Origin: an uncultured Candidatus Saccharibacteria bacterium
Lineage (GTDB): Bacteria; Patescibacteriota; WWE3; 2-01-FULL-39-13
Length of the DNA stretch: 64,000 nucleotides
Assembly (NCBI GenBank): GCA_965230915.1
Contig: OZ246395.1
Location: 858,431-922,430 of the forward strand
Direction: 5' to 3'
The position numbers and the translations under genes are program-made. Below the pieces are notes generated by a model. That model did no database searches and was not told the DNA's origin. It worked only from the letters and a program-made list of their open reading frames with translations. This document shows positions 3,001 through 34,218 of the stretch, one piece after another (the first letter of the stretch is position 1; each line of letters begins with the position of its first letter).

Positions 3001-6000
3001 AGTTCCATCAAGCCATGCACGTTTAGCATTGGCAGTTTCATCCCATGCTAATCTGAAGTGATACCATTGTCCCGCAGTTGGAGAAAAGCTCTGCCTTAAT
3101 AGTGTCCCTTGAGCTGCTGCTGCATAGATCGCAGCCTCTAAATAACCGTCGGGAGTATGTCTTATAAAAAGTCTGTTCGTATCTCCAAGGTTGGCATAGT
3201 CTACAAGGTACGCACCTTTGGGGTTAGAAGGAGAACCTGAATAATTCGCTTTAAACCAGAAATCAATTGTTCCGTTTTGACGTGCACTGGCGGTTCCGCT
3301 CTGACCTTCAATATTATATCTAGTAGCGATACTGCTACTTGTAATTGCATATGTAGGATAAACCAAAACAGCGCTGCCAATACCATTTACACCAGTCCAG
3401 GATCCGTTATTTCTTAAGTAATTATCCTGGAGCAAAAGCATTCTATCCCCGAACTTAGTTGCGGTTGGAGACCCCGATGGAATCCTTAAGCTTATCTCAT
3501 CATCAGGGGAAGTATATGTAGTACCGGGGGTTGCAGTCCCTGAAGATCCGGTTGCACTGCCTGTAACTGTATATTTACTTTGCGTCGGATCCCATTCAAA
3601 ATCCCAAAGTTCATATTTTGTGTCTCCGTTAGAGGTCGTAATTCCCACAGCACTATCTAGTCCCTTATAGCTTCTAATTCCGGTGGAACTTAAATATATT
3701 TTGTCGCCAATTTCCGGAGGAGTTACCCCGTTTCTCCCACCTTTATGCTTAAGGGTGAAGTTGATATAGCTGCTTGTAAAAGGTGTGCCTGGGGTAGCGG
3801 TGCCAATCGAACCTTGAGTTGAACCTACAACATTCCAAGTTCCCGTATCTGTGAATGTGTCCGAAAAGCCTGTGTCTGTTGAAACTGTGTCGAATAAGGC
3901 TTTCATTCCTTGGGACGCAGTTGCAGAACCTGTATAAAGTCCGAATCGGCCTGCGGTATATGTTGCATTTGTTTCAGTTTCATCCCACGAACCCGGCTCA
4001 CCTGAAGAACAATCTGAAGTCGCCCAGAACTTTGCATTAAGAGTTGTTCCACTAACTTGAGCCTTCAAACAGTACCAGGTGTCTTCACTAAAAGCTTTTG
4101 TGGTCGCTGAACCAATTAAAGTCGGAACACCAGCCAAAGTCGTATACCAGCCGATTGTATTAGCCGCATTCGTTTTTGTTATTAAGGCGGCATAACCATT
4201 TCCGTCAAGGTTCTGCCTCATCATTACTCCAACACGTCTAGATGTTGCATCCGCAACCATATCCATTTTTACGAGCGCACTTATTGTGTAATCGGTGCCA
4301 GTTAGCGAACCATTATGCAAAACAAGGTGCTGAACGTTGGTTGCATTAACATTTAATGTTCCACTATCAATATGCCAAATATATGGAGCTGAAGGTAAAG
4401 CCTGAGCACTTGTATATTTTTGGGTTTCTATCCAGCCAGGAGAGTTTCCATATTCAAGAGTCCAAGTTTCATTTGGATCATAAGAAGCTCCCGGAGTGAC
4501 CTCAGATAGTTTTGCCTCTTGTACGCCTGATGAAACAGCAATAGCCCCCGATGATAATCTTTCTATACCGCTCATTCCTATAGGTGTTGTTTGATTAGCC
4601 GGAGAAGTAGTCCACGATGAAAAACTGGAAATTCTTGCTCTGACCCAATACGCATTAACACTGTTAATCGTGGTTTTTGCCGGAGTGCCTGTTAAGTTAG
4701 AAGGCGTCCAGCTAAGTATTTTTCTACCGGTATTCGAACTAAAAACCGATGTGGGATCAACAGAAACCCAATGTCCGCCATTTAATCTTGAGACTCTGGC
4801 GTTCTGAGCCGTTGTATATCCCGATGGAAGCGGCTCCGCAAAAGTCAAAACAGTCGCAGTTGGAGCTGTTGTTCCAAGTCTTCTATATATAGGACTCGAA
4901 TCATCATCGTCAATCATTACGATTTGGTCTAAACCGAAGTTTGCTCCACCTTCAGGGATTGTTATTGTGTAAGAGTTTCTGGTTATATCAGCAGACAACG
5001 GCATCGAGTAATCGGTTCTAGGCTGATATATATACGAATCTCTAGGTGTAAAACTAATCCAGTTAGAACCATTCCAGAATTCCCATACATAACTTGCAGA
5101 TGCAGACATTAATGTTCCAATATTAAATTCCAGCGAATAGAACATACTGTTGCCTTGATCTGCAAAGTACACTGCATCATTTACTTCAGAATTTGCGCTA
5201 TCACCAAAAATCGTCCATGCAGTACTATTCGCATAGTTAGAAGAATAGCTTACAGATCCACCGTTATAGTTGGCATTGTAAATATTTGTTAGAGGAACCG
5301 TACCGATTTCGGAAACCTCCATATTTGGAGCCGGTAAATCATTTTTACCTCCAGCGGTCACACCTCCGGTCCAGAGTGGCATTTGGGCAGCATCATCAAC
5401 GCTTCCCATTTCTAAAGTAGAAATATTATTATCTGGTGGCAGGTTTGTTCCACCGCCGACTGCAATTTCATCTGTGGGCTGCCAGTTTCCAACGACATTG
5501 TCTTCCACATCAACCCAAGTATTGCCTGCATCTGTAAGGTTGTTCCCCAAATAACCGGTATCAATGTTGCCATCGATATCAACGGCCAAATCGCTCTTGC
5601 TTGTTCTAAAATCGCTCGACCCATCTGCATACAAACTAACTCTTCCGGTACGAAAGTTTGTCTGCGTAGAAGCAGCGATAATACCCGTCATTGTAAAAAC
5701 CCCGGCTCTACGATCTGACCCTGTTGGAAGTTCGGTAGTTATGCCTTTTGCGATATAAGCGCCTTGCGCTGTTGTATAACCGGTAACGGCAGCGGCAGTT
5801 AAAGTGATTGATGTCCCGCTTTGAATAGCGGCAATCACACGGGTTATTGCGACAGAATTATTATCATCAAGAATTATAGTATCTCCAACCGCAAACCCTG
5901 TTGTTGATGTAACAGTAAGTGTCGTGGAAGCGGCAGAATCTACAGTAAGAGTAGTCGAAGCTGCCGGGCTTACATTATCAAAATGTATATCCGAATAAGA

Positions 6001-8484
6001 AGAAGCTGGCAAAGCCGCCCCCGGTTTACCGAATGCGACAGAAGCATTAGACTCTACGACAATTTTGCCCGGGATATTTATTCGATAATGTTTGTTGGCT
6101 GAATTATCTATTCCTAGCTGCGAACCGGGGGTAACTAACGCCGAAACCCATCCGCCGTTAGATGTATATGCCGCAAAGTCGGTTCGGCTACCCGCACCAT
6201 CGCCGACCGCACCTGATACATTGCCAGTATATATAAGACCTGCGTCCCAATTACGGTCAATCGTAACAACGTGGCTCTCTTTAGTCGCCCAATTTATATC
6301 ATTTGATAAATTCGAAGAATCATTAGTATCCGGATCGGATTTTCCATTACCAACAATAACCATATCTCCATCTGCGGGCGCAGTAGTATTGGCATCTCCA
6401 TATGCTACAAAGTAAATATGTCTATTAGATAAAAATGGATATCTCGTTGAAGAAGTTGCAACTGCCTCTGATTTGGCATAAGCAAGAACAACACTCGTAG
6501 TACGAGCCAACAAAGTTGAACCTGTAGGGTTTTGAGCGTGATTTATAGAGGTCCACTTTAAAACATTTCCGTTTGAAGGTGTCCCGGTATTAGAAAGGGT
6601 AACCGAAACTTCAGCTATTTTTGCCGATTGATCGGTAGTGTAAGTTCCGTTTCCAGGACTGCTGTTTAATGTTATTGGTTGACCGACACCACAAGAGCCG
6701 GAAAAACTTGAAATCGTTCTAGTTATTATTGGGGAGTTATTATCATAAATGGCTACAGTTCCGCCTGTTGCAAACTTTGTATTGTCCTCGACGCAAATTA
6801 CAGCCGTAGCATCTGTGTTTGCCTGAACAGTCTGATGTGCACCCTGAATTATTCTTTGCTTCCAAATTGATCTAGCCACGCTGGCATTTTTAGAAGTTGT
6901 ATAACCGGTAACCATTGCAGAAGTTGTAACAATGGCAGGGCCGTCCGAACAGCTCGCATGTGATGAAGTCACAGATGCAATAGTTCTTTGTATTGTAGCT
7001 GTATCTGAATCCCAAATATCAATATATTGATTAGCCGCAAAACCGGTAGTAGAAGCTACACAAATTACCGTTGTTGCGGTTGAATTAGCAGTAAGAGTAG
7101 TTAAAGTTGCCCCATCATCAACCCAAGAAGCACCTGTCGCACCGTCAGTAGCGGTTGTCAGTTTTCTTGCTTGAGTTCCTGATACCGAGCCTACAATGGT
7201 CCAATCGCTTGTGGCCGATGAATAGGTCGCGGTCCAGTGCTCATTTTCAGTCCTTCTTGCTGTAGGCAATCCAACTCCCGCGGAAGAATTAGCGACGACC
7301 ATTCCACCTAATAAAGATGCTGAACCGCCAAGCACACTATTTGAAGTCAACGCAGGCGGCATATTCATAGTAGAGGCACTTGTAGCATCAATATCAATTA
7401 CGCCGAGTGTTCTAACAGTTCCATTTACCGAAGCAAAACCATTAGACTGAGGCGATTCGCCCCATACTCCAAGAGCAGTCGTCGCCGGAGCAGTCGCTCC
7501 CATATTTATAATGCGTATTCCATAATGCTTAGTCGTCGAAACGCCCGGATCAACAGCCAAAGGCGGATCAAATCTAAAATCTAGAGTTGCTCTACCAAAA
7601 TTACCCGGCTGGGAATTTTCGCCAGATGTAGCCTGATTAAATTGCCATACAGTTCTTCTTTCGACAACAGTATCCGAAGGGTAAGTATAAGCACCCTGTG
7701 TGCCTGTTACATAATTCGAACACGATGAAGTACAGCTCGCGGATGGAAACCTTAGAAGCTCAACCACAATATCGCTGTTTGAAAGCGAAGTCGATGTAAT
7801 GTTTTCCATGATTATCTGAACACCGGCTATATTGCCGTCATCTGAAGGCGTAAAACCAATAAATTGTGCCGCCGCATAAGTTGCTGTCGCCGCCATAGGA
7901 ACGTATCCGACTGCCAAGCCTCCGGCAGAACCATCGGTCGTACCACCCGGGTGAATTGGGTTAAAGGTTCCCGATTCGGCATCACCGTTAACACCATCGC
8001 CCGAATATGCCATCGCTGTATACCAGTCACCATCAGTAGATAGGGTCGTACTTTGCTTTGATATTTTAACCGCACCTGTAAACGTCGCCGCAAAAGGCTT
8101 TGGCGCAAATAATTTTGACGATACAAATATAAAAATTGCAACAAAAGCTGGAGCTAAAAATACAATCGCCAAGACAAGAGGTAAATGCCTTCGGACATAC
8201 AAAACAATCTTTGCCGGAGTTAGATTTTTTATATCTCTATAAAAATTTTTAATGAGTTTTTTGTAATCGGTAGTTCTGAAAGTTCTGTATAAATTTTTAG
8301 AAAATATAATTATTTCCTTCTTCGAAAACCTGACATTCTTGATTTTTTTAATAAGGAAAATGATTGATGGAATTATTCCCGAAGTCTTTTCTTTTATAGT
8401 TTTAGGTAAGTTCGCTAATAAGGTCTGCCACACAACCATCTTTCGACGGTAAACTGACTTTCGCCTGGGCAGATTAGTTCGCAT
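1..8484 (-). CDS. Giant cell-surface protein, partial (start at 8484, continues past window start; >2820 codons in window). N-terminal TM anchor, parallel beta-helix-like repeats, LamG/concanavalin-like motif, repeated ~65-aa T/S-rich modules
   Basis: Manual translation of the minus strand from ATG (rc of cat at 8482-8484) stays open to position 1 with protein-like composition. The ORF track shows no >=60-aa ORF in this frame and only short ORFs in the other frames, as expected if one frame runs off the edge. TM helix LVLAIVFLAPAFVAIFIFV near the N-terminus; ISNNIFSINNYGIRLYGNSFFNMSDNVF is a PbH1-like beta-helix repeat; GSIDEFAIFDDDID is a LamG-like motif. Confidence 0.85.
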   Translation of the reverse strand, partial: MRTNLPRRKSVYRRKMVVWQTLLANLPKTIKEKTSGIIPSIIFLIKKIKNVRFSKKEIIIFSKNLYRTFRTTDYKKLIKNFYRDIKNLTPAKIVLYVRRHLPLVLAIVFLAPAFVAIFIFVSSKLFAPKPFAATFTGAVKISKQSTTLSTDGDWYTAMAYSGDGVNGDAESGTFNPIHPGGTTDGSAGGLAVGYVPMAATATYAAAQFIGFTPSDDGNIAGVQIIMENITSTSLSNSDIVVELLRFPSASCTSSCSNYVTGTQGAYTYPSDTVVERRTVWQFNQATSGENSQPGNFGRATLDFRFDPPLAVDPGVSTTKHYGIRIINMGATAPATTALGVWGESPQSNGFASVNGTVRTLGVIDIDATSASTMNMPPALTSNSVLGGSASLLGGMVVANSSAGVGLPTARRTENEHWTATYSSATSDWTIVGSVSGTQARKLTTATDGATGASWVDDGATLTTLTANSTATTVICVASTTGFAANQYIDIWDSDTATIQRTIASVTSSHASCSDGPAIVTTSAMVTGYTTSKNASVARSIWKQRIIQGAHQTVQANTDATAVICVEDNTKFATGGTVAIYDNNSPIITRTISSFSGSCGVGQPITLNSSPGNGTYTTDQSAKIAEVSVTLSNTGTPSNGNVLKWTSINHAQNPTGSTLLARTTSVVLAYAKSEAVATSSTRYPFLSNRHIYFVAYGDANTTAPADGDMVIVGNGKSDPDTNDSSNLSNDINWATKESHVVTIDRNWDAGLIYTGNVSGAVGDGAGSRTDFAAYTSNGGWVSALVTPGSQLGIDNSANKHYRINIPGKIVVESNASVAFGKPGAALPASSYSDIHFDNVSPAASTTLTVDSAASTTLTVTSTTGFAVGDTIILDDNNSVAITRVIAAIQSGTSITLTAAAVTGYTTAQGAYIAKGITTELPTGSDRRAGVFTMTGIIAASTQTNFRTGRVSLYADGSSDFRTSKSDLAVDIDGNIDTGYLGNNLTDAGNTWVDVEDNVVGNWQPTDEIAVGGGTNLPPDNNISTLEMGSVDDAAQMPLWTGGVTAGGKNDLPAPNMEVSEIGTVPLTNIYNANYNGGSVSYSSNYANSTAWTIFGDSANSEVNDAVYFADQGNSMFYSLEFNIGTLMSASASYVWEFWNGSNWISFTPRDSYIYQPRTDYSMPLSADITRNSYTITIPEGGANFGLDQIVMIDDDDSSPIYRRLGTTAPTATVLTFAEPLPSGYTTAQNARVSRLNGGHWVSVDPTSVFSSNTGRKILSWTPSNLTGTPAKTTINSVNAYWVRARISSFSSWTTSPANQTTPIGMSGIERLSSGAIAVSSGVQEAKLSEVTPGASYDPNETWTLEYGNSPGWIETQKYTSAQALPSAPYIWHIDSGTLNVNATNVQHLVLHNGSLTGTDYTISALVKMDMVADATSRRVGVMMRQNLDGNGYAALITKTNAANTIGWYTTLAGVPTLIGSATTKAFSEDTWYCLKAQVSGTTLNAKFWATSDCSSGEPGSWDETETNATYTAGRFGLYTGSATASQGMKALFDTVSTDTGFSDTFTDTGTWNVVGSTQGSIGTATPGTPFTSSYINFTLKHKGGRNGVTPPEIGDKIYLSSTGIRSYKGLDSAVGITTSNGDTKYELWDFEWDPTQSKYTVTGSATGSSGTATPGTTYTSPDDEISLRIPSGSPTATKFGDRMLLLQDNYLRNNGSWTGVNGIGSAVLVYPTYAITSSSIATRYNIEGQSGTASARQNGTIDFWFKANYSGSPSNPKGAYLVDYANLGDTNRLFIRHTPDGYLEAAIYAAAAQGTLLRQSFSPTAGQWYHFRLAWDETANAKRAWLDGTPFTTGQASTVGTRGANAGLVIIGNRYTYDAAFDGSIDEFAIFDDDIDTSAGCNYGSFTPPSSAWTGGETVTCSGSGVAGTNIFRASFDSAMNPREGWVWADYAFGNPSIIFTNGADTGNERIRVITYPQRTRVWVDNTGDKYTPSARIKSGSGFLENAALATLTGWSNNFTYHHKAKRESEDNPTYSPVLNLKRNTHIWSTENISYTGATTGAPINAGLGFGPVAVGLSGLATLDFSDVSMENQYSNFSIVGNPYTSAAVKPTQRVSNSVFYNFYDRAYTVSGKTEGTNYVGAYFVTTNFAAANIGSGYNASTSQNVGIDGSIFMGNRNAYVTVPPAAANGAAAFFSGRLYTVSNSEFYNNGVAGSGTSGALNFSSGVAKVTISNNIFSINNYGIRLYGNSFFNMSDNVFDGHTSSDVVTVGSEYGSGIRFAQTASSIAITDDGSVFGRGLWNESDINTSPNTATFEAESLAQFTGSGTQFLSPVLFGTAGYTNMSRIPEHYFGTTIPGTDIRGTYSTNTKDIVNFTTFGNMRTTGQSLSDTTVRTSGGYSWRMEPTSADVTLDYTAKVVGVATKPLAVTGYIYVNDAYGSSNLPTVTLSGLGMTGDNLTWTASDDPGTWQQFVVSGTPTESALAELVISVKNNFVASDSGTNEVIALPIGNYLPPMFEDVDKSWTPNQWVGYKLKDSNGKIFDIVRNTSQILYLKGTVVPFLRSTTFAATTVGDYVIYEPPYVYIDDVSILSGSVDTGTLDFYADGQPVSPWLSTGLTAEGVWAAQYSNFADTDGSFGQLLQDSLVANYANVSDPSATTTSFNTNLTSATDNFYNDGVIIFTEGQNTGVVRRISDYAGASKTITLDPALPFSPANGNRFAILAATSSSTGGGGGASAADIWSYALRSLTTADLDSGSLATQADIDGLNDITAQQVWEYGTRTITGEVALTSASRSAIWDSACSILNTSGSVGKRVCDNLDAAVSSRSTLTAADVWAEATRTITGITDPA

Positions 8485-16100: not shown

Positions 16101-16787
16101 ATTTACACAACAAAAGATGAAGATTTAGAAACCGGGGATATAGTTTCAATTGACCCTGACTTATCGACAGGTGTAATGAAAAGCTCCAAACCTTACGATA
16201 AAAGTGTTATTGGAATAGTCTCCACAAGTCCCGGAGTCGTAATCGGTTCAGTACAAAAAGAAGGCGTCAAAGCCATGCCTATTGCTTTAAGTGGACGCGT
16301 ACCGACCAAAGTGTCGACAGAAAACGGATCAATATACCCAGGAGACTACCTTACAACTTCATCTATTCCCGGTGTCGCTATGAAATCTACGAAAGCTGGT
16401 CCGATTATTGGAACCGCAATAAATTCATTCGATGACGATAAAGTTGGAAAAATTTTAGTCTTTGTTAAAAATGGATCTTCAAATATAGATTCGGGCGAGA
16501 ATGAATTTGTTAATTCCTTCGGAAAAACCACAGTTAAATCAGGTGAGTCCGAAGCTCAGATTGATTTCTCTGACGAATACAAAAAACAATTAGCAGATAC
16601 AAAAGTAAGTCCATTCATAAATATAAGCCCGAGTCTGAATGATGAAGATGAAATTGAGGACTTACCTCAATATGCCGTATTCGACATCTCTAAAGAAGGT
16701 TTTAAAATAAAAATTTCTAAGACAACAGGGTTTGATATTGATTTTTCGTGGGTCGCTGTTTCACCAAATTCCAAAAACCATGAGTGA
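13122..16787 (+). CDS. 1221-aa membrane-anchored protein: N-terminal MerR-type HTH, single TM, large S/T/N/G-rich extracellular region with a tandem ~135-aa repeat and a conserved C-terminal domain
   Basis: AEQTAKLLGITTDKLSILERQGILHPLKTANGNIQY matches the MerR HTH pattern. TM segment SLYVAGSFIAVYILLVIIFIISF. Internal tandem duplication ~14170-14990. Upstream palindrome GTTACataacaGTAAC at 13091-13106. Confidence 0.8.
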   Translation: MDYFSAEQTAKLLGITTDKLSILERQGILHPLKTANGNIQYPKSDIVQIKSHNRHSISEEAELMGSVIQKDLVKSTSLMKKSLYVAGSFIAVYILLVIIFIISFSSNPIQTAKWLGIIRNSEATSTLALNSNGGNVLGASTIENEKDSVVQTILQPVGKVSLKLVKNIKPDAYAEVSEVTILDPNDVLKLNTDGNMVPEKPIDIADSSLLKVRESDLVENLNSQYVQGRQPGTNPGDLAIVGDNSQEVAAPIIVQDNTLAEKISELTNDNFSGNAAISNSNLANSSITINTSGPISGGDTIALGGAIDIDCPTCITDDSDFVTEGSTNTFINKSINATDNTITGLNSINLEAGDYSSKITSGTYSINITGTVDTAINFSGQLLGDVTGTQTATSVEKIKGQSLGNVLPTSGNILIGNGSEWNSELLSGDATIDASGVITLKNTGTAGIFGSSNSIPIITTDAQGRVLSASTTLITGLGPSSLSSGDYSSVINSGIYNIDISGNASTATSATSANTATTANSATNFTGNLLGDVTGTQSSTIVEKINGENLGIVTPTSGNLLIGSGTEWVTKSLSGDATVNSSGLVSLVNTGTAGTYGSSSEIPVIITDSKGRVTGVANTSIANLSVSNFISQNISQWTNDSSFITNSSINNLTNKTISGITNTLSDISNSSLSNSSITFAGNVGSGNISLGSTINILGGGINSTSYSSGTLTITGTEADTLSSVTGRGSSTNNTLTLNGGINTTTTTNLNLDTGTTGSILIGTGFNSKNIGVGNTFGSTSLNLFSGTGNINLVAGPTSSSEKVQIGNSASATPDILVLDNGTADPSGINGAMYYNTATNKFRCYQNGWTNCISNVGADIQNAVSYDTSQDLTNIGSAQVTVTSVTVTPTTATGDVYVRAKAEILSSNGTDQTLVLSIEDNATCTGSTLTSNPITITSASGTVIGDFELSAVEVDAGTSPQSYSLCASTATGDTDIRLYQMFATVIDTGSDLAEIYTTKDEDLETGDIVSIDPDLSTGVMKSSKPYDKSVIGIVSTSPGVVIGSVQKEGVKAMPIALSGRVPTKVSTENGSIYPGDYLTTSSIPGVAMKSTKAGPIIGTAINSFDDDKVGKILVFVKNGSSNIDSGENEFVNSFGKTTVKSGESEAQIDFSDEYKKQLADTKVSPFINISPSLNDEDEIEDLPQYAVFDISKEGFKIKISKTTGFDIDFSWVAVSPNSKNHE
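14170..14990 (+). repeat. In-frame tandem duplication (~135 aa x2) inside the 1221-aa gene
   Basis: SGDYSSKITSGTYSINITG...GDVTGTQTATSVEKIKGQSLGNV...TGTAGIFGSSNSIPIITTDAQGRV repeats as SGDYSSVINSGIYNIDISG...GDVTGTQSSTIVEKINGENLGIV...TGTAGTYGSSSEIPVIITDSKGRV. Confidence 0.8.
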
Positions 16788-17865
16788 GAATAATTTTTAT
16801 GATGATGGCCCGGACTTCGGCCCAGATTCACTTGTAAATGAAATAAATTCTTTGGCACATAAATATTATCCCGCCGAAAACCCAAGCGAAATTCCTGAAA
16901 ATAACTTCACTCATCTGACTAGAAATATATACATTCAAGCCGGAGTTCCAGTCTTGGCTTTAACTTACTTAATGTTATTTAGCAATTCGCAAAACACGAG
17001 TGCTCAAAGCACTGTTGAAATTCATGTGGAACCCTCAACAATTGCGAATGCTGCGTGCTATCCGGATGAACTAGAATTCCAAATTACAAATGTAAATGAA
17101 GATAATGCTCCCGGAACAATTTGGGTCAGCTGGAACGACGAAACTTTACAAATTGAAATCTTTGCAGTAGATCAAAACGGTACTGCAATATATCACGTTA
17201 CTGATCCCGACTTGCTCGATGGAATATTGGAAGACTCATGGACAGAAATATTTGCACAATGGATAGGACAATTTGTAGTCAAAGGGTGTGCCACTCCAAC
17301 ACCAACATTCACTGCAACCTCAACGGAAACTCCAACACAAACCTATACAGCTACGGCAACTGAAACATCTACCGAGATGGCTACTTCGACTTCCACGTCT
17401 ACATCTACAGCAACGGCTACTTCGACCTCGACCCCAACTTTTACTGAGACACCTAACCCAACAGCGACAGCAACAGATACGTCAACAGCGACCCAAACTC
17501 CTAGCCCAAGTACAACATCAACTCCCAGCACAACCTCAACGCCAATTCCAAGCTCGACTTCTACATCAACGGAGACTCCAACTGTAACTTCTACAAATAC
17601 ACCAAATGCTACGACAACAGAAACTCCAACTCAAACCTTTACCAGTACTCCATCACCGACACAAACACGCACCAATACCCCTACTAATACTCCTGTTGAA
17701 TTGGTAGAAACTAACACTCCTACTTTTACGCCAGATCCATCGCCTACAGCCCCAACCCATACTGGCTCCCCCACACCAACAGATATAACGCCAAAACCTA
17801 CGGCGACAATAGAACCGACAGCTACGAAACCTAAAATATATGCCCCTGAAATCGAAAAAAACTAG
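16780..17865 (+). CDS. Secreted/surface protein with a long Thr/Pro/Ser-rich mucin-like C-terminal linker (start placed at the ATG overlapping the upstream stop in ATGAGTGA)
   Basis: Hydrophobic N-terminal segment VPVLALTYLMLF; ~170-aa TPT/TST low-complexity tract (17290-17800). The track start at 16732 overlaps the upstream gene, and the internal ATG at 16780 gives a 4-8-nt overlap typical of coupled genes. Confidence 0.65.
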   Translation: MSENNFYDDGPDFGPDSLVNEINSLAHKYYPAENPSEIPENNFTHLTRNIYIQAGVPVLALTYLMLFSNSQNTSAQSTVEIHVEPSTIANAACYPDELEFQITNVNEDNAPGTIWVSWNDETLQIEIFAVDQNGTAIYHVTDPDLLDGILEDSWTEIFAQWIGQFVVKGCATPTPTFTATSTETPTQTYTATATETSTEMATSTSTSTSTATATSTSTPTFTETPNPTATATDTSTATQTPSPSTTSTPSTTSTPIPSSTSTSTETPTVTSTNTPNATTTETPTQTFTSTPSPTQTRTNTPTNTPVELVETNTPTFTPDPSPTAPTHTGSPTPTDITPKPTATIEPTATKPKIYAPEIEKN

Positions 17866-17942: not shown

Positions 17943-17982
17943 TCCGCGGGCTGGACGTTATCAGAACTGAGGTTTTAGAATT
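17943..17982. repeat. att-like direct repeat, copy 1: the 14-nt 3' end of tRNA-Asn (TCCGCGGGCTGGAC) plus 26 nt identical to copy 2. Left boundary of the tRNA-Asn island
   Basis: 40/40 identity with 18645-18684. The first 14-15 nt equal the 3' acceptor/T-arm end of the tRNA at 19228-19302. Confidence 0.85.
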
Positions 17983-17984
17983 TA

Positions 17985-18046
17985 TTGAAGTTGTTTCGAC
18001 TTGACCTTCCCAAATCTCATCAGACACTAAGTGTAACAACTTGCAA
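17985..18046 (-). ncRNA. Type III hammerhead ribozyme (HHR-1), immediately 3' of gene 18131..18532
   Basis: Minus-sense 5'-UUGCAAGUUGUU^ACAC-UUA-GUGU-CUGAUGA-GAUUUG-GGAAGGU-CAAGUC-GAAA-CAACUUCAA. Conserved CUGAUGA and GAAA cores. Stem I is 4 bp with a triloop, stem II 6 bp with loop GGAAGGU, stem III 7 bp including A15.1:U16.1. Cleavage triplet GUU. Two paralogs covary. Confidence 0.85.
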
Positions 18047-18130
18047 GAATAAAGTATGACTGAGATTTCGGTATTTGAAACCGATTGAAGTGTAGCGCTA
18101 GGCTAAACTCTATTAATCTCAAGCAATACT

Positions 18131-18532
18131 CTACCCTTGCCTCTTGTGTGCTACTTTAAACTTGACCATACCGGCGCTCGTCATGAGCATCCATGATCCT
18201 GGGATAAACTGCACCCAGCCGTCGATCTCAATCTCATCGCCACCATTCCCTCGGTAAACCGAAGCTATTATGTTCAGGACTTTATCCCTGAACTCATCAG
18301 CAACAGTTTCCACAACCTCGCCAGGATTCGTCTGAATCTCGACATACAAATGTGCCGCATCTGGATCCACACTCAAAATCTCTAATCCAAACGCATTCAC
18401 GATTATATCGTCACTTGGCAAGCCATAATCCGTACCCGCCATAACCTTTACTTCACGGCGAATTTTATCTGTGGAATCAATCAAAAATGTCTTAACTCCA
18501 AGATCCATAGCTAACAGTTTAATCAGTGGCAT
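18131..18532 (-). CDS. Hypothetical 133-aa protein, GC-richer cassette gene P1
   Basis: Own promoter (TTTAAA-17-TATAAT) and SD AAGGAG 9 nt before the ATG; followed by HHR-1. No recognisable domain. Confidence 0.7.
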   Translation of the reverse strand: MPLIKLLAMDLGVKTFLIDSTDKIRREVKVMAGTDYGLPSDDIIVNAFGLEILSVDPDAAHLYVEIQTNPGEVVETVADEFRDKVLNIIASVYRGNGGDEIEIDGWVQFIPGSWMLMTSAGMVKFKVAHKRQG

Positions 18533-18585
18533 GGCTTTCGACTCCTTTTGCCATTTCTAAAACATACCTATTCGGAATTAATAGG

Positions 18586-18623
18586 ATTGTGCATGATTAT
18601 ACTATAAATACAGGTCGATTTAA
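18586..18623 (-). promoter_or_regulatory. Sigma70-type promoter of cassette P1 (TTTAAA-17-TATAAT) with upstream CCCATAGTATTT motif
   Basis: rc of 18586-18591 is TATAAT, rc of 18609-18614 is TTTAAA, spacer 17. Motif CCCCATAGTATTT directly upstream, next to the att repeat. Confidence 0.6.
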
Positions 18624-18644
18624 ATACTATGGGGCATAAATGGG

Positions 18645-18684
18645 TCCGCGGGCTGGACGTTATCAGAACTGAGGTTTTAGAATT
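18645..18684. repeat. att-like direct repeat, copy 2 (identical 40 nt), separating cassettes P1 and P2
   Basis: TCCGCGGGCTGGACGTTATCAGAACTGAGGTTTTAGAATT is identical to 17943-17982, 703 bp away. Confidence 0.85.
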
Positions 18685-18694
18685 AGTTAATTGG

Positions 18695-18760
18695 AAATAA
18701 AAAAACCGCCTCATGATTTTGATTGTCGTAATGACTTTCGCGTCATAAAGCGGGTTAATC
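18695..18760 (-). terminator. Terminator-like structured region 3' of cassette gene P2 (nested hairpins, then UUUUUUUAUUU), where P1 has a hammerhead instead
   Basis: Minus-sense CCGCUUUAUGACGCGAAAGUCAUUACGAC...CAUGAGGCGGUUUUUUUAUUU; the inner AUGAC-GCGAAA-GUCAU hairpin sits inside a longer imperfect stem. Confidence 0.4.
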
Positions 18761-18785
18761 TAAACAGGTTAAGGGTTAGATTCCC

Positions 18786-19139
18786 TTACTTGAGGAGCTT
18801 TAGCTCAGATAGAGGGGGATATGCTGATCCCCAAAAGAAATACTTATCCGAAAATCCAGAACCACTCAATAGTAAGTAGCTAACCGAGGCCATAGGTGTC
18901 GAAGTAAATCGATATTGGTTCCTATCAATTTCCGTCAAGCCAACTCGCCCGTTTCCCCAGACCATAACGCCTGCTAACAGCTGAGGTAAGTATGTTTTCC
19001 GATGTTCTCCTAAATAGGAGTACACTGGGAACATCATTTGGATCAACTCTTCATCCGAGTTGCTAAATACAGGAATCCGCCCCTCTGCTAGAGTCTTTGC
19101 CCAACCACTTACGATAGCATTTAAATCGTCGGTGATCAT
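18786..19139 (-). CDS. Hypothetical 117-aa protein, cassette gene P2, first gene after tRNA-Asn
   Basis: ORF directly downstream of a consensus promoter abutting the tRNA; visibly higher G+C than flanks; no recognisable domain. Confidence 0.65.
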   Translation of the reverse strand: MITDDLNAIVSGWAKTLAEGRIPVFSNSDEELIQMMFPVYSYLGEHRKTYLPQLLAGVMVWGNGRVGLTEIDRNQYRFTSTPMASVSYLLLSGSGFSDKYFFWGSAYPPLSELKLLK

Positions 19140-19186
19140 TATGTCCTCTTTCTTTGTGGATGAACCTTCTAATGAGAATTTGTGAG

Positions 19187-19215
19187 ATTTTAACAGTTTA
19201 CGACAAGCCTGTCAA
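19187..19215 (-). promoter_or_regulatory. Consensus sigma70 promoter (TTGACA-17-TAAAAT) immediately 3' of tRNA-Asn, reading into P2
   Basis: rc of 19210-19215 is TTGACA, rc of 19187-19192 is TAAAAT, spacer 17. Preceded by CCTATAGTG. Confidence 0.65.
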
Positions 19216-19227
19216 CACTATAGGATA

Positions 19228-19302
19228 CGTGGCTCCGCGGGCTGGACTCGAACCAGCAACCTCGAAGTTAACAGCTTCTTGCTCCACCATTGAGCTACCG
19301 CG
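19228..19302 (-). tRNA. tRNA-Asn (anticodon GTT), CCA encoded
   Basis: rc gives TCCGCGG-TA-GCTC-AATGGTG-GAGC-A-AGAAG-CTGTTAA-CTTCG-AGGTT-GCTGG-TTCGAGT-CCAGC-CCGCGGA-G-CCA, a cloverleaf with 7-bp acceptor stem, U33 and anticodon GUU. Confidence 0.9.
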
Positions 19303-19319
19303 GAATATTGGTGCTGCAG

Positions 19320-31881: not shown

Positions 31882-31894
31882 TGGTGCACCCAAG
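31882..31894. repeat. att-like direct repeat: 13-nt copy of the tRNA-Arg 3' end (TGGTGCACCCAAG); left boundary of the tRNA-Arg island
   Basis: Identical to 34142-34154 (the 3' end of the tRNA at 34142-34218). Confidence 0.7.
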
Positions 31895-31944
31895 TGATGT
31901 TAATTGGAATCGGGTTTTTGAATTTATATTGAAATTTTAGGAAA

Positions 31945-31998
31945 GTAGTTTCGACTTGATCTTCCCAAGTCTCATCAGGGACTATGTCCGACTAGAAC
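31945..31998 (-). ncRNA. Type III hammerhead ribozyme (HHR-2), 3' of gene 32105..32845
   Basis: Minus-sense 5'-GUUCUAGUC^GGAC-AUA-GUCC-CUGAUGA-GACUUG-GGAAGAU-CAAGUC-GAAA-CUACU. Canonical GUC cleavage triplet. Stem I and II covary with HHR-1 and HHR-3. Confidence 0.85.
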
Positions 31999-32104
31999 AC
32001 CGGAAAGAGAGGTTGAAGAAAAAATTGCAACGATTACTCGCGCAGCTTCAACATCTTCCGATGTTCGGTTGATCTACAAAATTCAAAATGAAATTCGCCG
32101 AAAA

Positions 32105-32845
32105 CTAGGCAGACTTCTCAATCCTCTTGAGTGCCAAAGCCTTCTGGCCAAATGGATTGACTTCCAACTGCTCATTATACTTGGGCAAGGCGTTTATTAG
32201 AGGCAAATGCTGATCCTCCATATATCCAAGCCCTATAAAACGATCCGCCAAAGCCTCATCGCGAAGATACATTCCCCGAGAATGAATCGCCTGCCTAAAC
32301 AGGGCAATATCATCATGACTGAGAGCTTCAACATCTGAATTCTCGAGGAGAAATCCCCACTTTTTAGCGAAACCTTGAAGGCCTTTTGCATCCATAGACG
32401 AAATCGCCTGATGTGAGTATTTAACTCTTAGGCCGGCCACGAAATCAGCGAATGGCATGTACCAAAACTCTTCAGTTCGTAAACGAACTTCTTCTGGTTC
32501 CCATTCATAACCTGTGGCAAAAATACCTAGAGCCACAACTCGATCATTCAGTTCTTCAGTCCACCCGCGGTGGCGGATAGTTTCGCGAAGATAAGGCGTG
32601 TCCTCGATCCCCGAAATATCTTCCTCCGTCACATCAAAGAGCCAACCCTGCAGGTACTGCAATAGGCTGACCTCCGTTGTTCCGAACATCATTAATCCGG
32701 TCAGCCCACCATTGGCAGAGTGCGCCTTGTTCGTTGGCCGAGCAGGTATACTGGGAACTGCTTCCTGTGCGACTTGCTCTTCGACCTTTGAAAAAGGAAA
32801 CAAATTAACAACAAACGATACGAAGGTGTTGATAATGTTTTGCAT
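32105..32845 (-). CDS. Hypothetical 246-aa protein, GC-rich cassette gene P3
   Basis: SD AGGAGA 10 nt before the ATG; followed by HHR-2. Confidence 0.7.
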   Translation of the reverse strand: MQNIINTFVSFVVNLFPFSKVEEQVAQEAVPSIPARPTNKAHSANGGLTGLMMFGTTEVSLLQYLQGWLFDVTEEDISGIEDTPYLRETIRHRGWTEELNDRVVALGIFATGYEWEPEEVRLRTEEFWYMPFADFVAGLRVKYSHQAISSMDAKGLQGFAKKWGFLLENSDVEALSHDDIALFRQAIHSRGMYLRDEALADRFIGLGYMEDQHLPLINALPKYNEQLEVNPFGQKALALKRIEKSA

Positions 32846-32881
32846 GGTAGAAGTTTCTCCTGCTTACTGAAAGTTTTTATA

Positions 32882-32925
32882 TTGCTCGAAGTAACTTTCG
32901 ATTACTCAAAAACTAATTCGAGCAA
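32882..32925. repeat. Inverted repeat TTGCTCGAA-(26 nt)-TTCGAGCAA between cassettes P4 and P3
   Basis: Perfect 9-bp arms read directly; lies between HHR-3 and the P3 start. Confidence 0.45.
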
Positions 32926-32953
32926 TATATTTGTAGATCAATTTTTAATGTAC

Positions 32954-33010
32954 AAAACTGTTTTCGATCTGAGCTTCCCAGATCTCATCAGGCGCTATGC
33001 GCGAACAGCG
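32954..33010 (-). ncRNA. Type III hammerhead ribozyme (HHR-3), ~270 nt 3' of gene 33281..33838
   Basis: Minus-sense 5'-CGCUGUUC^GCGC-AUA-GCGC-CUGAUGA-GAUCUG-GGAAGCU-CAGAUC-GAAA-ACAGUUUU. Stem I GCGC/GCGC and stem II GAUCUG/CAGAUC; both covary against the paralogs. Confidence 0.85.
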
Positions 33011-33280
33011 GGCAAAAGTGAAGCGGAAAGCAAAAGATTAGATAATGATCGAAATGATCATCAAATTCTCATGCTTTAAAAACATGCTTCACTGCCCGTC
33101 TGGCAAACTTTGAAACGAATCCAATGTAGAATTCCCTGAGCTAGTATTTGACACTTTAAGCTATTCCTAGGTAAGTATCTTTCGATCTTACACACTATCA
33201 ATAGCGCCGTACCTTGCGGTCTTGGCAGTCTTGAGCTTTTCATCGGGCTCGTGTTGGATTTACAAACTTCTTACTACCAC

Positions 33281-33838
33281 CTACTTGGGTTCGTATATCC
33301 ACTCGATGTGGTCGAATACGAATGGGCGCGGCGCTTCAACAGAGACGATGGCTTTTAGGCCAGCCTCTTCGATTTTCGCCTTTGGATTGGCGAAGGAGAT
33401 GATCTCCTGCAAAGCGCTTTCCCTCGTCCCATCACGGCCTTCCTGGTGATACCAGACAGGAATTTCCTTCGTCTGAGGACCACTCGGCATAGCCGAAGGA
33501 ACAGAAACCACGACACCCATCCGCGGAAGCGGAACTAGATCTCTCGCGAAATCAGCGGAGGTAAAACCTTCCCATGGAAGTCGTACTAAATCCTTCACAC
33601 CTTCCTGCCAAACCACTACTTTCAGTAGTGCCGATGCCAACGGCGCCGGTACATTCTGAAACAACAAAACTGCATCCTTCTCGACAGCCTTTTTTGCCAA
33701 ATCCAAAAGGACTGGCTTTGTCTCCTCGCCCGTTGCGGGGAAGGTGACATTGATGGTTTCGACAACCTCAACTTGGAGTGTGCCGAAGTCTGGGGCGTGC
33801 CGACCAATAACAATAGCGCGAATCGTTGCATTTTGCAT
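33281..33838 (-). CDS. Hypothetical 185-aa protein, GC-rich cassette gene P4
   Basis: RBS GAAAGGG; ~250-nt leader from a consensus promoter next to tRNA-Arg; followed by HHR-3. Confidence 0.7.
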   Translation of the reverse strand: MQNATIRAIVIGRHAPDFGTLQVEVVETINVTFPATGEETKPVLLDLAKKAVEKDAVLLFQNVPAPLASALLKVVVWQEGVKDLVRLPWEGFTSADFARDLVPLPRMGVVVSVPSAMPSGPQTKEIPVWYHQEGRDGTRESALQEIISFANPKAKIEEAGLKAIVSVEAPRPFVFDHIEWIYEPK

Positions 33839-34095
33839 GGTGCTTTCAACCCTTTCAAGATTGAAACTTACATCAGTTTCTAAGCTCCCATTGGAGTTAG
33901 CTTCAGATCACCTGAAGAAACAACCTACGTTTTTCCATCGTAAGCTGATTCCTCAGGCAATCTTCAATTAGTTTGCCAAATTTTTAATGTACTTTTTGAG
34001 ACTTTTTGTGGGGTATAGCCTTTAGGGCCTTGCCGTTAAAAAAGCTCAGAAATCAATGGACTTTTTGATATCCGAACCTTTCAACTTAATGGCTA

Positions 34096-34124
34096 CATTA
34101 TATTACGAAAAGGCTAGCCTGTCA
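34096..34124 (-). promoter_or_regulatory. Perfect consensus sigma70 promoter (TTGACA-17-TATAAT) immediately 3' of tRNA-Arg, reading into the island
   Basis: rc of 34119-34124 is TTGACA, rc of 34096-34101 is TATAAT; preceded by CCTATAGTA. Confidence 0.7.
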
Positions 34125-34141
34125 ATACTATAGGCTAGTGT

Positions 34142-34218
34142 GGTGCACCCAAGAGGATTCGAACCTCTGGCCTCAACTTCCGCAAAGTTGCGCTCTATCC
34201 AGCTGAGCTATGGGTGCT
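34142..34218 (-). tRNA. tRNA-Arg (anticodon GCG), CCA encoded
   Basis: rc gives GCACCCA-TA-GCTC-AGCTGGATA-GAGC-G-CAACT-TTGCGGA-AGTTG-AGGCC-AGAGG-TTCGAAT-CCTCT-TGGGTGC-A-CCA. Arg-type D and T arms; anticodon loop UUGCGGA. Confidence 0.85.

Follow-up and report, generated by a model that had tools for sequence, protein, structure and literature searches.

The 64-kb stretch of DNA analysed here, referred to as the window, contains two tRNA genes, and at both tRNA-Arg and tRNA-Asn an insert is found that has direct repeats of the 3' end of the tRNA as its boundaries (Table 1). Read in the minus sense, the tRNA-Arg island consists of the tRNA-Arg itself, the left arm CCTATAGTATTGACAGGCT, an ORF of 185 aa, hammerhead copy 3, an ORF of 246 aa, hammerhead copy 2, the right arm and the repeat. 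Copy 2, on which this report centres, was given the limits 31998 and 31945 in a preliminary description of this DNA. By these limits it starts 107 nt after the stop of the 246-aa ORF at 32105 and ends 51 nt before the 13-nt repeat; the distances had been estimated there as about 105 and about 50 nt. The terminal att repeat proposed in that description exactly equals the 3' end of tRNA-Arg (34141-34153), and the two additional hammerheads it mentioned, copies 1 and 3, were located as well.

At the tRNA-Asn locus two units stand in tandem, in which a 14-nt core from the tRNA 3' end occurs three times and a right end of 48 nt is repeated. The left and right arms are homologous between the tRNA-Arg and tRNA-Asn loci, and the att cores are unrelated. 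The pattern of the right arm was found at three sites in the window, versus 0 expected by chance. Cassette 1 of the tRNA-Asn locus contains no ribozyme, and a long hairpin followed by U7 lies in the corresponding place. The cassettes carry their own promoters.

Table 1. Positions of hammerhead copy 2, its structural parts and the surrounding cassette features in the window.
Feature	Position	Strand	Basis or remark
tRNA-Arg(GCG)	34141..34217	-	last 13 nt repeated at 31882-31894
Left arm CCTATAGTATTGACAGGCT with 12/12 sigma-70 consensus promoter	34097..34134	-	7 nt past the tRNA-Arg 3' end
Cassette ORF, 185 aa	33281..33838	-	no Pfam match
Hammerhead copy 3, separating the ORFs of 185 and 246 aa	32957..33009	-	motif, R1, R2 (72.5 bits); predicted cleavage after C33003
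Cassette ORF, 246 aa, upstream of copy 2; ORFan	32105..32845	-	no Pfam, PHROG or PADLOC match
Hammerhead copy 2 (type III), stem III 5' to 3' strand	31946..31994	-	sequence; RF00008; models R1 and R2
Predicted self-cleavage site of copy 2, 3' of C17 (31990) / 5' of G1.1 (31989), triplet GUC	31989..31990	-	alignment column 13
Stem I hairpin GGAC-AUA-GUCC	31979..31989	-	31989-31986 pairs with 31982-31979; loop AUA
Catalytic core strand CUGAUGA (C3-A9)	31972..31978	-	sequence and alignment
Stem II, 6 bp, heptaloop GGAAGAU	31953..31971	-	31971-31966 GACUUG pairs with 31958-31953 CAAGUC
G12-A13-A14, A15.1 and stem III 3' strand (GAAACUA)	31946..31952	-	GAAA = 31952-31949
Right arm AAATTCAAAAACC-N10-TAACATC	31896..31925	-	tRNA-Asn elements have homologous right arms
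Direct repeat (CTTGGGTGCACCA) of the 3' end of tRNA-Arg; bounds the 2.26-kb element on the right	31882..31894	-	13 nt, exact
tRNA-Asn island	17943..19304	-	tRNA-Asn 19230-19304 and two tandem cassettes
tRNA-Asn cassette 1	promoter, ORF 18786-19139, hairpin + U7 18699-18753, right arm + core 18645-18685	-	
tRNA-Asn cassette 2	promoter, ORF 18131-18532, copy 1, right arm + core 17943-17983	-	
Hammerhead copy 1, behind the ORFan of 133 aa (18131-18532); cut expected at about 18035	17988..18042	-	motif, R1, R2

Pfam domains were searched in 44 ORFs across the 64-kb window, and no integrase, recombinase, transposase, reverse transcriptase, RtcB or RNase J was found among them. The cassette proteins gave no match to PADLOC defence models, PHROGs or Pfam. 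When 5.8 billion clusters were searched, the 246-aa protein and the 133-aa protein matched only themselves, and an exhaustive HMMER search of 1.84 billion representatives again returned the 246-aa protein as its own sole match; the AlphaFold prediction for this ORFan had a pLDDT of 35 and was unusable. For the 185-aa protein five homologues were detected, some of them on phage-like contigs, with neither a ribozyme nor a tRNA adjoining. The tRNA was the only match when the island and the 185-aa protein were compared by BLAST with phage genomes, and scans of viral contigs with the left arm and with the right arm gave no match. The island itself recurs in Logan run SRR14271372. Matches to the left arm in metagenomes (n=4) were rejected; they occurred without tRNA or ribozyme, mostly at a different GC content, and look like chance.

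The sequence that had been quoted for copy 2 was found on the minus strand as given and reads 5'-UUCUAGUC/GGAC-AUA-GUCC-CUGAUGA-GACUUG-GGAAGAU-CAAGUC-GAAA-CUAC-3', with the slash at the predicted cut. By the position ruler the cut had been placed correctly between 31990 and 31989 (C17 = 31990, G1.1 = 31989). The hammerhead core strand C3 U4 G5 A6 N7 G8 A9 is complete, the base of stem II is the pair G10.1:C11.1, and nucleotide 17 is C31990, which fits the rule that this position of the cleavage site is H and not G. Stem III is formed by UAGU (31994-31991) with ACUA (31949-31946) and comprises 4 bp including A15.1:U16.1 (A31949 with U31991), in agreement with the short stem of 3 bp plus A:U described before. 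Both ends of the RNA lie in stem III and loops cap stems I and II, which is the topology of type III.

At the gathering threshold Rfam detected only the two tRNAs in the window. In a permissive local scan RF00008 (Hammerhead_3) was the best match of copy 2 among the Rfam and clan models, with 28.3 bits and E=2.7e-4, which is below the gathering score of 48.5. The same model gave 20.6 bits for copy 3, also below 48.5, and no match to copy 1 at E<=0.1. The core motif CTGATGAG-N(8-30)-CGAAA occurred three times in the 64-kb window, all on the minus strand, versus 0.05 expected from shuffles. The family model R1 scored copy 2 at 67.7 bits. R2, a covariance model built from 26 non-window copies with the window sequences excluded, returned exactly three matches in the window, at 72.5 bits (copy 3), 70.0 bits and 62.9 bits (copy 2, E about 2e-17), and the next match in the window reached 14.8 bits. 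Taken together, the three motifs versus 0.05 expected, the E-value with RF00008 and the score with R2 exclude chance for copy 2.

Public collections were scanned with the pattern CTGATGAG-N4-6-GGAAGNT-N4-6-CGAAA, in which only the core and loop II are fixed and all three stems are free. About 26 further copies of the window design were recovered from public genomes. The genome matches fell into two separate groups: a chance group with 0-3 of the five possible stem II pairs and no stem I, and a window-like group with a stem I of 4 bp and an NUA triloop, a stem II of 6 bp and an open stem III. The window-like group comprised 24 loci, 21 of which were labelled Saccharibacteria, Patescibacteria, WWE3 or CPR3. 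When 17 related loci were searched with Rfam at the gathering threshold, no hammerhead match was obtained. Two copies that were found by the model alone carry CUGACGAG, with C at core position 7, and retain the loop GGAAGUU. Position 7 is the one free position of the hammerhead core, and apart from it (N7 is U or C) the core strand was invariant across the family. The U and A of loop I, which the search pattern left free, were invariant too; loop II is invariant in the alignment because that pattern fixed it.

For the analysis of covariation 27 sequences were aligned without gaps and scored against the hammerhead structure. Standard pairs occupied 93.2% of the cells, a percentage that is inflated by members having been picked partly for their ability to form stems, versus 69.0% with partners shuffled; 0 of 500 shuffles reached 93.2%. 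Pairing fell to 32-40% when the partners were slid by 1-3 columns, and to 33-40% when they were slid by one. Since members were partly picked for pairing, we regard this slide control and the independent model R2 as the fair tests, and the slide control together with the bimodal split from the chance matches argues against circularity. Double changes, affecting both sides of a pair, were present at 14 of the 17 pairs in the 27 sequences, and the covariation figures were the same when the window copies were left out. In stem I all four pairs showed such changes, and in stem II four of the six did so, G10.1:C11.1 (columns 32-50) being invariant. The preliminary description had named non-compensatory changes in homologues as the observation that would speak against its proposal. 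This check did not go against it, as in stems I and II 100% of the cells were paired and a single position showed up to four types of pair. The inner five pairs of stem III were nearly always paired and used all four Watson-Crick types. Position 16.1 was U and the 15.1:16.1 pair was intact in 27 of 27 sequences, and position 17 was only C or U. The family stems contain G:U wobbles, and the structure is therefore read on the minus-strand sense, as RNA. For the tertiary contact of loop I, or a stem I bulge, with loop II, by which hammerheads cleave fast at physiological Mg2+, the alignment was read for covariation between the variable positions of the two loops; none was seen, and a pseudoknot partner was not found either.

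Among the three window copies, full covariation of stem I had been claimed. It held for three of the four pairs but not for the loop-closing C:G, which is identical in all three copies and is altered once in the wider family, to U:A in L097. The more general claim of a type III hammerhead with compensatory covariation was borne out by about 26 homologues with compensatory stems. We concluded that copy 2 is almost certainly a genuine type III hammerhead ribozyme, for which cleavage is predicted. Judged from sequence, the CPR-restricted copies with their compact stem I and conserved heptaloop, which lie below the Rfam gathering score, represent a real new subfamily. In a literature search we found no paper tying hammerheads to Saccharibacteria, Patescibacteria, CPR or TM7.

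The hairpins could alternatively act as DNA, either as a folded single-strand recombination site resembling attC or as a recombinase binding site, so that the likeness to a hammerhead would be incidental. Such a function would suit the position of the motif, which lies about 50 nt from the right arm and the att repeat in all three window copies. It is nevertheless barely credible, because the invariant positions are those of the hammerhead catalytic core, with U16.1 and H17-not-G obeyed throughout the 27 sequences, and because the G:U wobbles of the stems would be A-C mismatches on the other strand. Furthermore, the motifs of other genomes occur without flanking direct repeats or tRNA, and tRNA-Asn cassette 1 has the same arms without the motif.

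The weakest part of copy 2 is stem III. In the family this stem is 4-8 bp long with a median of 6, and copy 2 is at the minimum of 4 bp. The MFE fold of the isolated 59-mer of copy 2 had stems I and II formed and stem III open, and in a context of 141 nt the upstream UCUUUCCGG was predicted to compete by pairing with the loop II region. Thermodynamic z-scores of single sequences were not significant and were kept out of the evidence. With its 4-bp stem III and the competing fold, copy 2 could be slower than its siblings and in the worst case inactive. It might then be what is left of a formerly active ribozyme, in decay and without catalysis, and retained only because the insertion is recent; the shortest stem III in the family, an MFE fold without this stem, the alternative pairing in context and the lowest model score among the three window copies all fit that description. 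We consider a relic rather improbable, since none of the catalytic nucleotides is altered and stems I and II pair perfectly though their sequences differ from those of the other copies, which argues for continued selection on copy 2, and for pairing in particular. A stem III of 4 bp is also present in another family member (L069a), and activity in vitro is established for minimal hammerheads whose helix III has 4 bp.

The surroundings of the ribozyme in other genomes were also analysed. In every copy examined, a co-oriented ORF ends roughly 45-430 nt upstream of the ribozyme, usually at about 100 nt. These upstream ORFs are mostly orphans; of the 20 that were scanned, four gave a match in Pfam, one of them below its cut-off, and 16 gave none. 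The downstream ORFs are often housekeeping genes, including RadC, Sua5/TsaE, class-V aminotransferase, NUDIX and RecR. At four loci (L061, L069, L101, L050) the next ORF starts about 8-25 nt past the ribozyme and can thus only be transcribed through it. The next gene is convergent at copy 1, L056b, L091 and L097. Most copies are single. The L056 locus contains two successive units of promoter, small ORF, spacer of 130-150 nt and ribozyme, of which the second faces convergent genes, and the order within the units matches that of the window cassettes. An all-against-all BLAST of the flanking ORFs revealed no protein family common to the loci. Two candidates for general family properties were rejected. 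One was tRNA linkage, as a co-oriented upstream tRNA was present at one of 24 other loci (L107); the other was flanking direct repeats, none of which exceeded the positional control except at L055, where a block of the 5'-UTR is duplicated. The tRNA/att cassette setting is specific to this genome and not a family trait.

Our main reading, to which we assign a probability of roughly 0.7, is that the type III hammerhead is transcribed within the cassette mRNA and most likely serves intercistronic or 3'-UTR processing. That the RNA is really cleaved, what becomes of the two products and how the element profits are inferred, as follows. The RNA of copy 2 would fold while it is being transcribed and cut itself behind C31990. 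Upstream of the cut this would leave the mRNA of the 246-aa ORF with a 2',3'-cyclic phosphate end, and downstream an RNA whose 5'-OH lies right at the base of the stem I hairpin. By this cut the mRNA of the acquired orphan gene would be uncoupled from read-through RNA, the partner being the next cassette gene at copy 3, and the right arm, the att repeat and the chromosomal 400-aa ORF at copy 2. No promoter-like site was found between copy 3 and the 246-aa ORF, nor between copy 2 and this next chromosomal ORF, and the tRNA-Arg island is therefore probably one transcript that is cut twice. A processing role is supported by tRNA-Asn cassette 1, in which the hairpin and U7 sit where other cassettes have the ribozyme. 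As some downstream genes depend on read-through, the ribozyme would act as an insulator rather than a terminator, and with a natural insulator a cassette could insert without polar effects on the genes behind it. We lean, with some reserve, towards a processing or insulator element of acquired cassettes as its role. Against a unique insulator role stand the copies with a convergent next gene (copy 1, L056b, L091, L097), where there is nothing downstream to insulate.

Alternatively, the ribozyme may substitute for a terminator, as may be the case at those same convergent sites: the exposed 5'-OH would allow RNase J to degrade the nascent RNA 5'-3' and to dislodge the polymerase, and read-through would be silenced. 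The cassettes with a ribozyme have no intrinsic terminator after them and the ribozyme-less cassette 1 has a hairpin and U7, which speaks for such a substitution. A precedent is the glmS ribozyme, for which the 3' product of cleavage is degraded by RNase J1, an enzyme that can remove stalled polymerase (PMC10810187). Overall we hold termination to be unlikely, since in L061, L069a, L101 and L050 the ORF 8-25 nt downstream must be expressed from the cleaved RNA. The new 5' end would in addition be buried in the stem I hairpin, which is expected to hinder 5'-end-dependent decay, and no RNase J gene was seen in the 64-kb window.

The two co-oriented hammerheads of the tRNA-Arg island bracket one ORF and could also work as a pair. 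Copies 3 and 2 would then release an RNA of 1013 nt (33002-31990) with the 246-aa ORF, and this RNA might be circularised by an RtcB-type ligase or be a mobile or replicative intermediate, as in retrozymes and viroid-like RNAs. The same geometry is present in L056 (713 nt apart), L069 (681 nt) and L066/L098, and the predicted 5'-OH and 2',3'-cyclic phosphate ends are the substrates of RtcB ligase. Circular products were raised as a possibility by Perreault et al. in 2011, who sought circular or spliced products but did not detect them (PMC3088659). Because most copies are single and no such products were found in that study, we rate circularisation as very unlikely. Cassette 2 of tRNA-Asn has one ribozyme only, neither a reverse transcriptase nor RtcB was found in the window, and the boundaries of the element are repeats and arms at the DNA level, beyond the stretch of RNA that the two cuts would release, all of which speak against a unit-length RNA.

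Processing of the cassette mRNA, which we prefer, concerns the ribozyme; a more speculative picture concerns the elements that carry it. The ribozymes may, tentatively, be integral parts of undescribed miniature gene-capture elements in CPR, each with a single ORFan, 0.6-2.3 kb in size and inserted without integrase at different tRNA 3' ends, singly or in tandem. It is conceivable, if doubtful, that such elements consist of a conserved left arm with the consensus promoter, a right arm of the form AAATTCWAAAACC-N10-TAACRTC and a hammerhead that replaces the terminator. With similar caution we suggest that the insertion might be non-polar, the cargo mRNA being cut away while transcription continues into the gene that formerly followed the tRNA. 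If this picture is true, the same arms with unrelated cores would imply a free-core recombinase or a target-site duplication by another mechanism. A class of ribozyme-terminated mini-cassettes that target tRNA genes is a possibility based on one genome.

Hammerheads are common in bacteria, and their biological role there is still unproven. The subfamily presented here offers a clean natural test case, as a compact ribozyme is consistently found after small, newly acquired orphan genes in tiny genomes, and in some cases an essential-looking gene, which has to be expressed from the cleaved RNA, follows it by as little as 8-25 nt. Since the Rfam gathering thresholds miss the subfamily, it is absent from annotations of CPR genomes; the alignment of 27 sequences with its structure could seed a model. 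The association of a ribozyme with mini-cassettes at two tRNAs, integrase-less within 64 kb, is new. If confirmed, the mini-cassettes with shared arms and different cores bear on how ultra-small genomes gain and express genes.

Among known hammerheads, RF00008 (clan CL00010), which includes ribozymes of viroids, plant satellite RNAs and bacteria or prophages, shares with the subfamily the core CUGANGA...GAAA, the pairs G10.1:C11.1 and A15.1:U16.1, the NUH triplet, and closed stems I and II with an open stem III. The subfamily differs in its low scores with this model (0 to 28 bits versus the gathering score of 48.5), in its compact stem I of 4 bp with the NUA triloop and its 6-bp stem II with the GGAAGNU heptaloop, and in its distribution, which is almost exclusively in Saccharibacteria and other Patescibacteria. 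Abundant relatives by loop II, GGAAG(A/C)U, are the gut-phage hammerheads with CUGAUGAGUCUUGGAAGAUUAAGACGAAA (IMG/VR L001-L033) and the viral type III hammerheads L024/L025. Type III topology was seen in L003, L017, L023, L024, L089 and L099 of this group, and the family model scored the group at 36-47 bits. However, their stem II has 4 bp and their stem I 5-6 bp with loops of 4 nt or longer, or the topology is another one; they are a sister group and not the same subfamily.

With tRNA-targeted islands and integrase-less cis-mobilisable elements the cassettes have in common that the insert lies between repeats of the 3' end of the tRNA, and that a tandem array with an internal att copy occurs at tRNA-Asn. 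They differ from these in the size of single genes, in that no integrase was found in the window, and in the same arms being combined with two unrelated cores, in contrast to the usual pattern of one integrase and one site. From integron cassettes they are set apart by their own promoters, by boundaries that are tRNA-derived repeats instead of attC, and by the lack of an integrase in the window. Of the traits of a retrozyme or viroid-like circular RNA, two flanking hammerheads are present at the 246-aa ORF; no reverse transcriptase was found in the window, though, single copies prevail and the element is bounded by DNA repeats that the RNA to be excised does not contain. RiboJ is an engineered insulator derived from the sTRSV hammerhead and placed in the 5' UTR, where cleavage leaves a hairpin at the new 5' end. 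By analogy the proposed logic would be alike, in that self-cleavage would remove the upstream RNA context and a hairpin would head the downstream message; in the present natural case, with a role proposed from sequence, the constant neighbour is the upstream ORF.

The closest parallel is found in the work of Perreault et al., in which hundreds of bacterial hammerheads were described, many of them near integrases or prophages (PMC3088659). Several copies often flanked individual genes of varying identity, cleavage took place in vivo as well as in vitro, and the role suggested, though unproven, was that transcripts are processed into gene-length mRNAs (PMC3088659). In the clusters of Clostridium scindens, Azorhizobium caulinodans and Agrobacterium tumefaciens (ardA), co-oriented hammerheads bracket mostly unknown genes in acquired DNA (PMC3088659), as they do here. 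The cassettes of the window differ from these clusters in being tiny units of 0.6-2.3 kb with their own promoters in a host that is presumably a CPR bacterium, judging from the distribution of the ribozyme family and the contig size of 945 kb, without integrase or phage genes within 64 kb, and located directly at tRNA 3' ends between att-like repeats. With these distinctions, the present case fits the picture drawn by Perreault et al. (PMC3088659).

Two stretches, 17943-19304 at tRNA-Asn and 31882-34217 at tRNA-Arg, carry mini-elements of approx. 0.59, 0.70 and 2.26 kb without an integrase. Two of these mini-elements are arranged in tandem at tRNA-Asn. Between the tRNA-Asn and tRNA-Arg sites the left arms were found to be homologous, consisting of CCYATAGTRTT and a promoter, and so were the right arms, which follow the pattern AAATTCWAAAACC-N10-TAACRTC. 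The att cores of the two sites are unrelated to each other, each being copied from the 3' end of its own tRNA.

No hammerhead was present in cassette 1 of the tRNA-Asn island. The position held by the ribozyme in the other cassettes is occupied there by a long hairpin followed by a U-tract, which was overlooked in a simple terminator scan because its loop is large.

Coordinates of the hairpin in tRNA-Asn cassette 1 and of the direct repeat around copy 3.
Feature	Position	Strand	Location
Long hairpin CCGCUUUAUGA...UCAUGAGGCGG, U7 directly after	18699-18753	minus	tRNA-Asn cassette 1
14-nt exact direct repeat GTACATTAAAAATT	32940-32953 and 33979-33992		

In the tRNA-Arg island, one copy of the direct repeat lies 3 nt past the hammerhead ribozyme HH3 (copy 3) and the other within the leader that precedes the 185-aa ORF on its 5' side. 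The repeat could mark the nested insertion of a unit containing this ORF and HH3, but positional controls in the same AT-rich DNA also yielded repeats of 13-14 nt. For copy 2, the second hammerhead of this island, a 141-nt fold predicted that UCUUUCCGG... (31996-32008, minus strand), located just upstream of the ribozyme, pairs with CUUGGGAAGA (31960-31969), in the region of copy 2 that forms stem II and its loop. Such a predicted alternative structure could delay or modulate the folding of copy 2.

In the tRNA-Asn island a near-miss hammerhead-like match was detected inside the 133-aa ORF (18256-18314, minus strand; approx. 15 bits, E approx. 0.04). It contained CUGAUGAG and a good stem II, but stem I and GAAA were absent, and the match probably arose by chance. 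Three copies of a sequence of approx. 44 nt, spaced by 24 nt and 61-75% identical, were found at 17561-17652. They fall within a long plus-strand ORF (16732-17865) convergent on the tRNA-Asn island, suggesting a repetitive, low-complexity protein segment.

Among the relatives in other bacterial genomes, one locus in a Saccharibacteria MAG (L055) contained a duplicated block of 104 nt (2775-2878 and 6026-6129), reaching from within the 3' part of the hammerhead to the next start codon; the second copy was located 3.25 kb upstream and preceded another ORF. A 68-nt hairpin-containing element was also present twice (4211-4278 and 6450-6517). These duplications suggest that paralogous cassette units exist in that genome too. 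Two further family members (L051 and L067) were found on contigs whose MAGs are labelled 'uncultured Pseudomonadales'. The GC content of 43% resembled that of the Saccharibacteria loci, and these contigs may come from CPR bacteria and have been binned wrongly.

On IMG/VR viral contigs (L001-L033), hammerheads were abundant that have the segment CUGAUGAGUCUUGGAAGAUUAAGACGAAA in nearly identical form. The GGAAGAU loop motif is common to these viral hammerheads and the CPR subfamily, whereas the viral ones differ in having a stem II of 4 bp and a differently arranged stem I.
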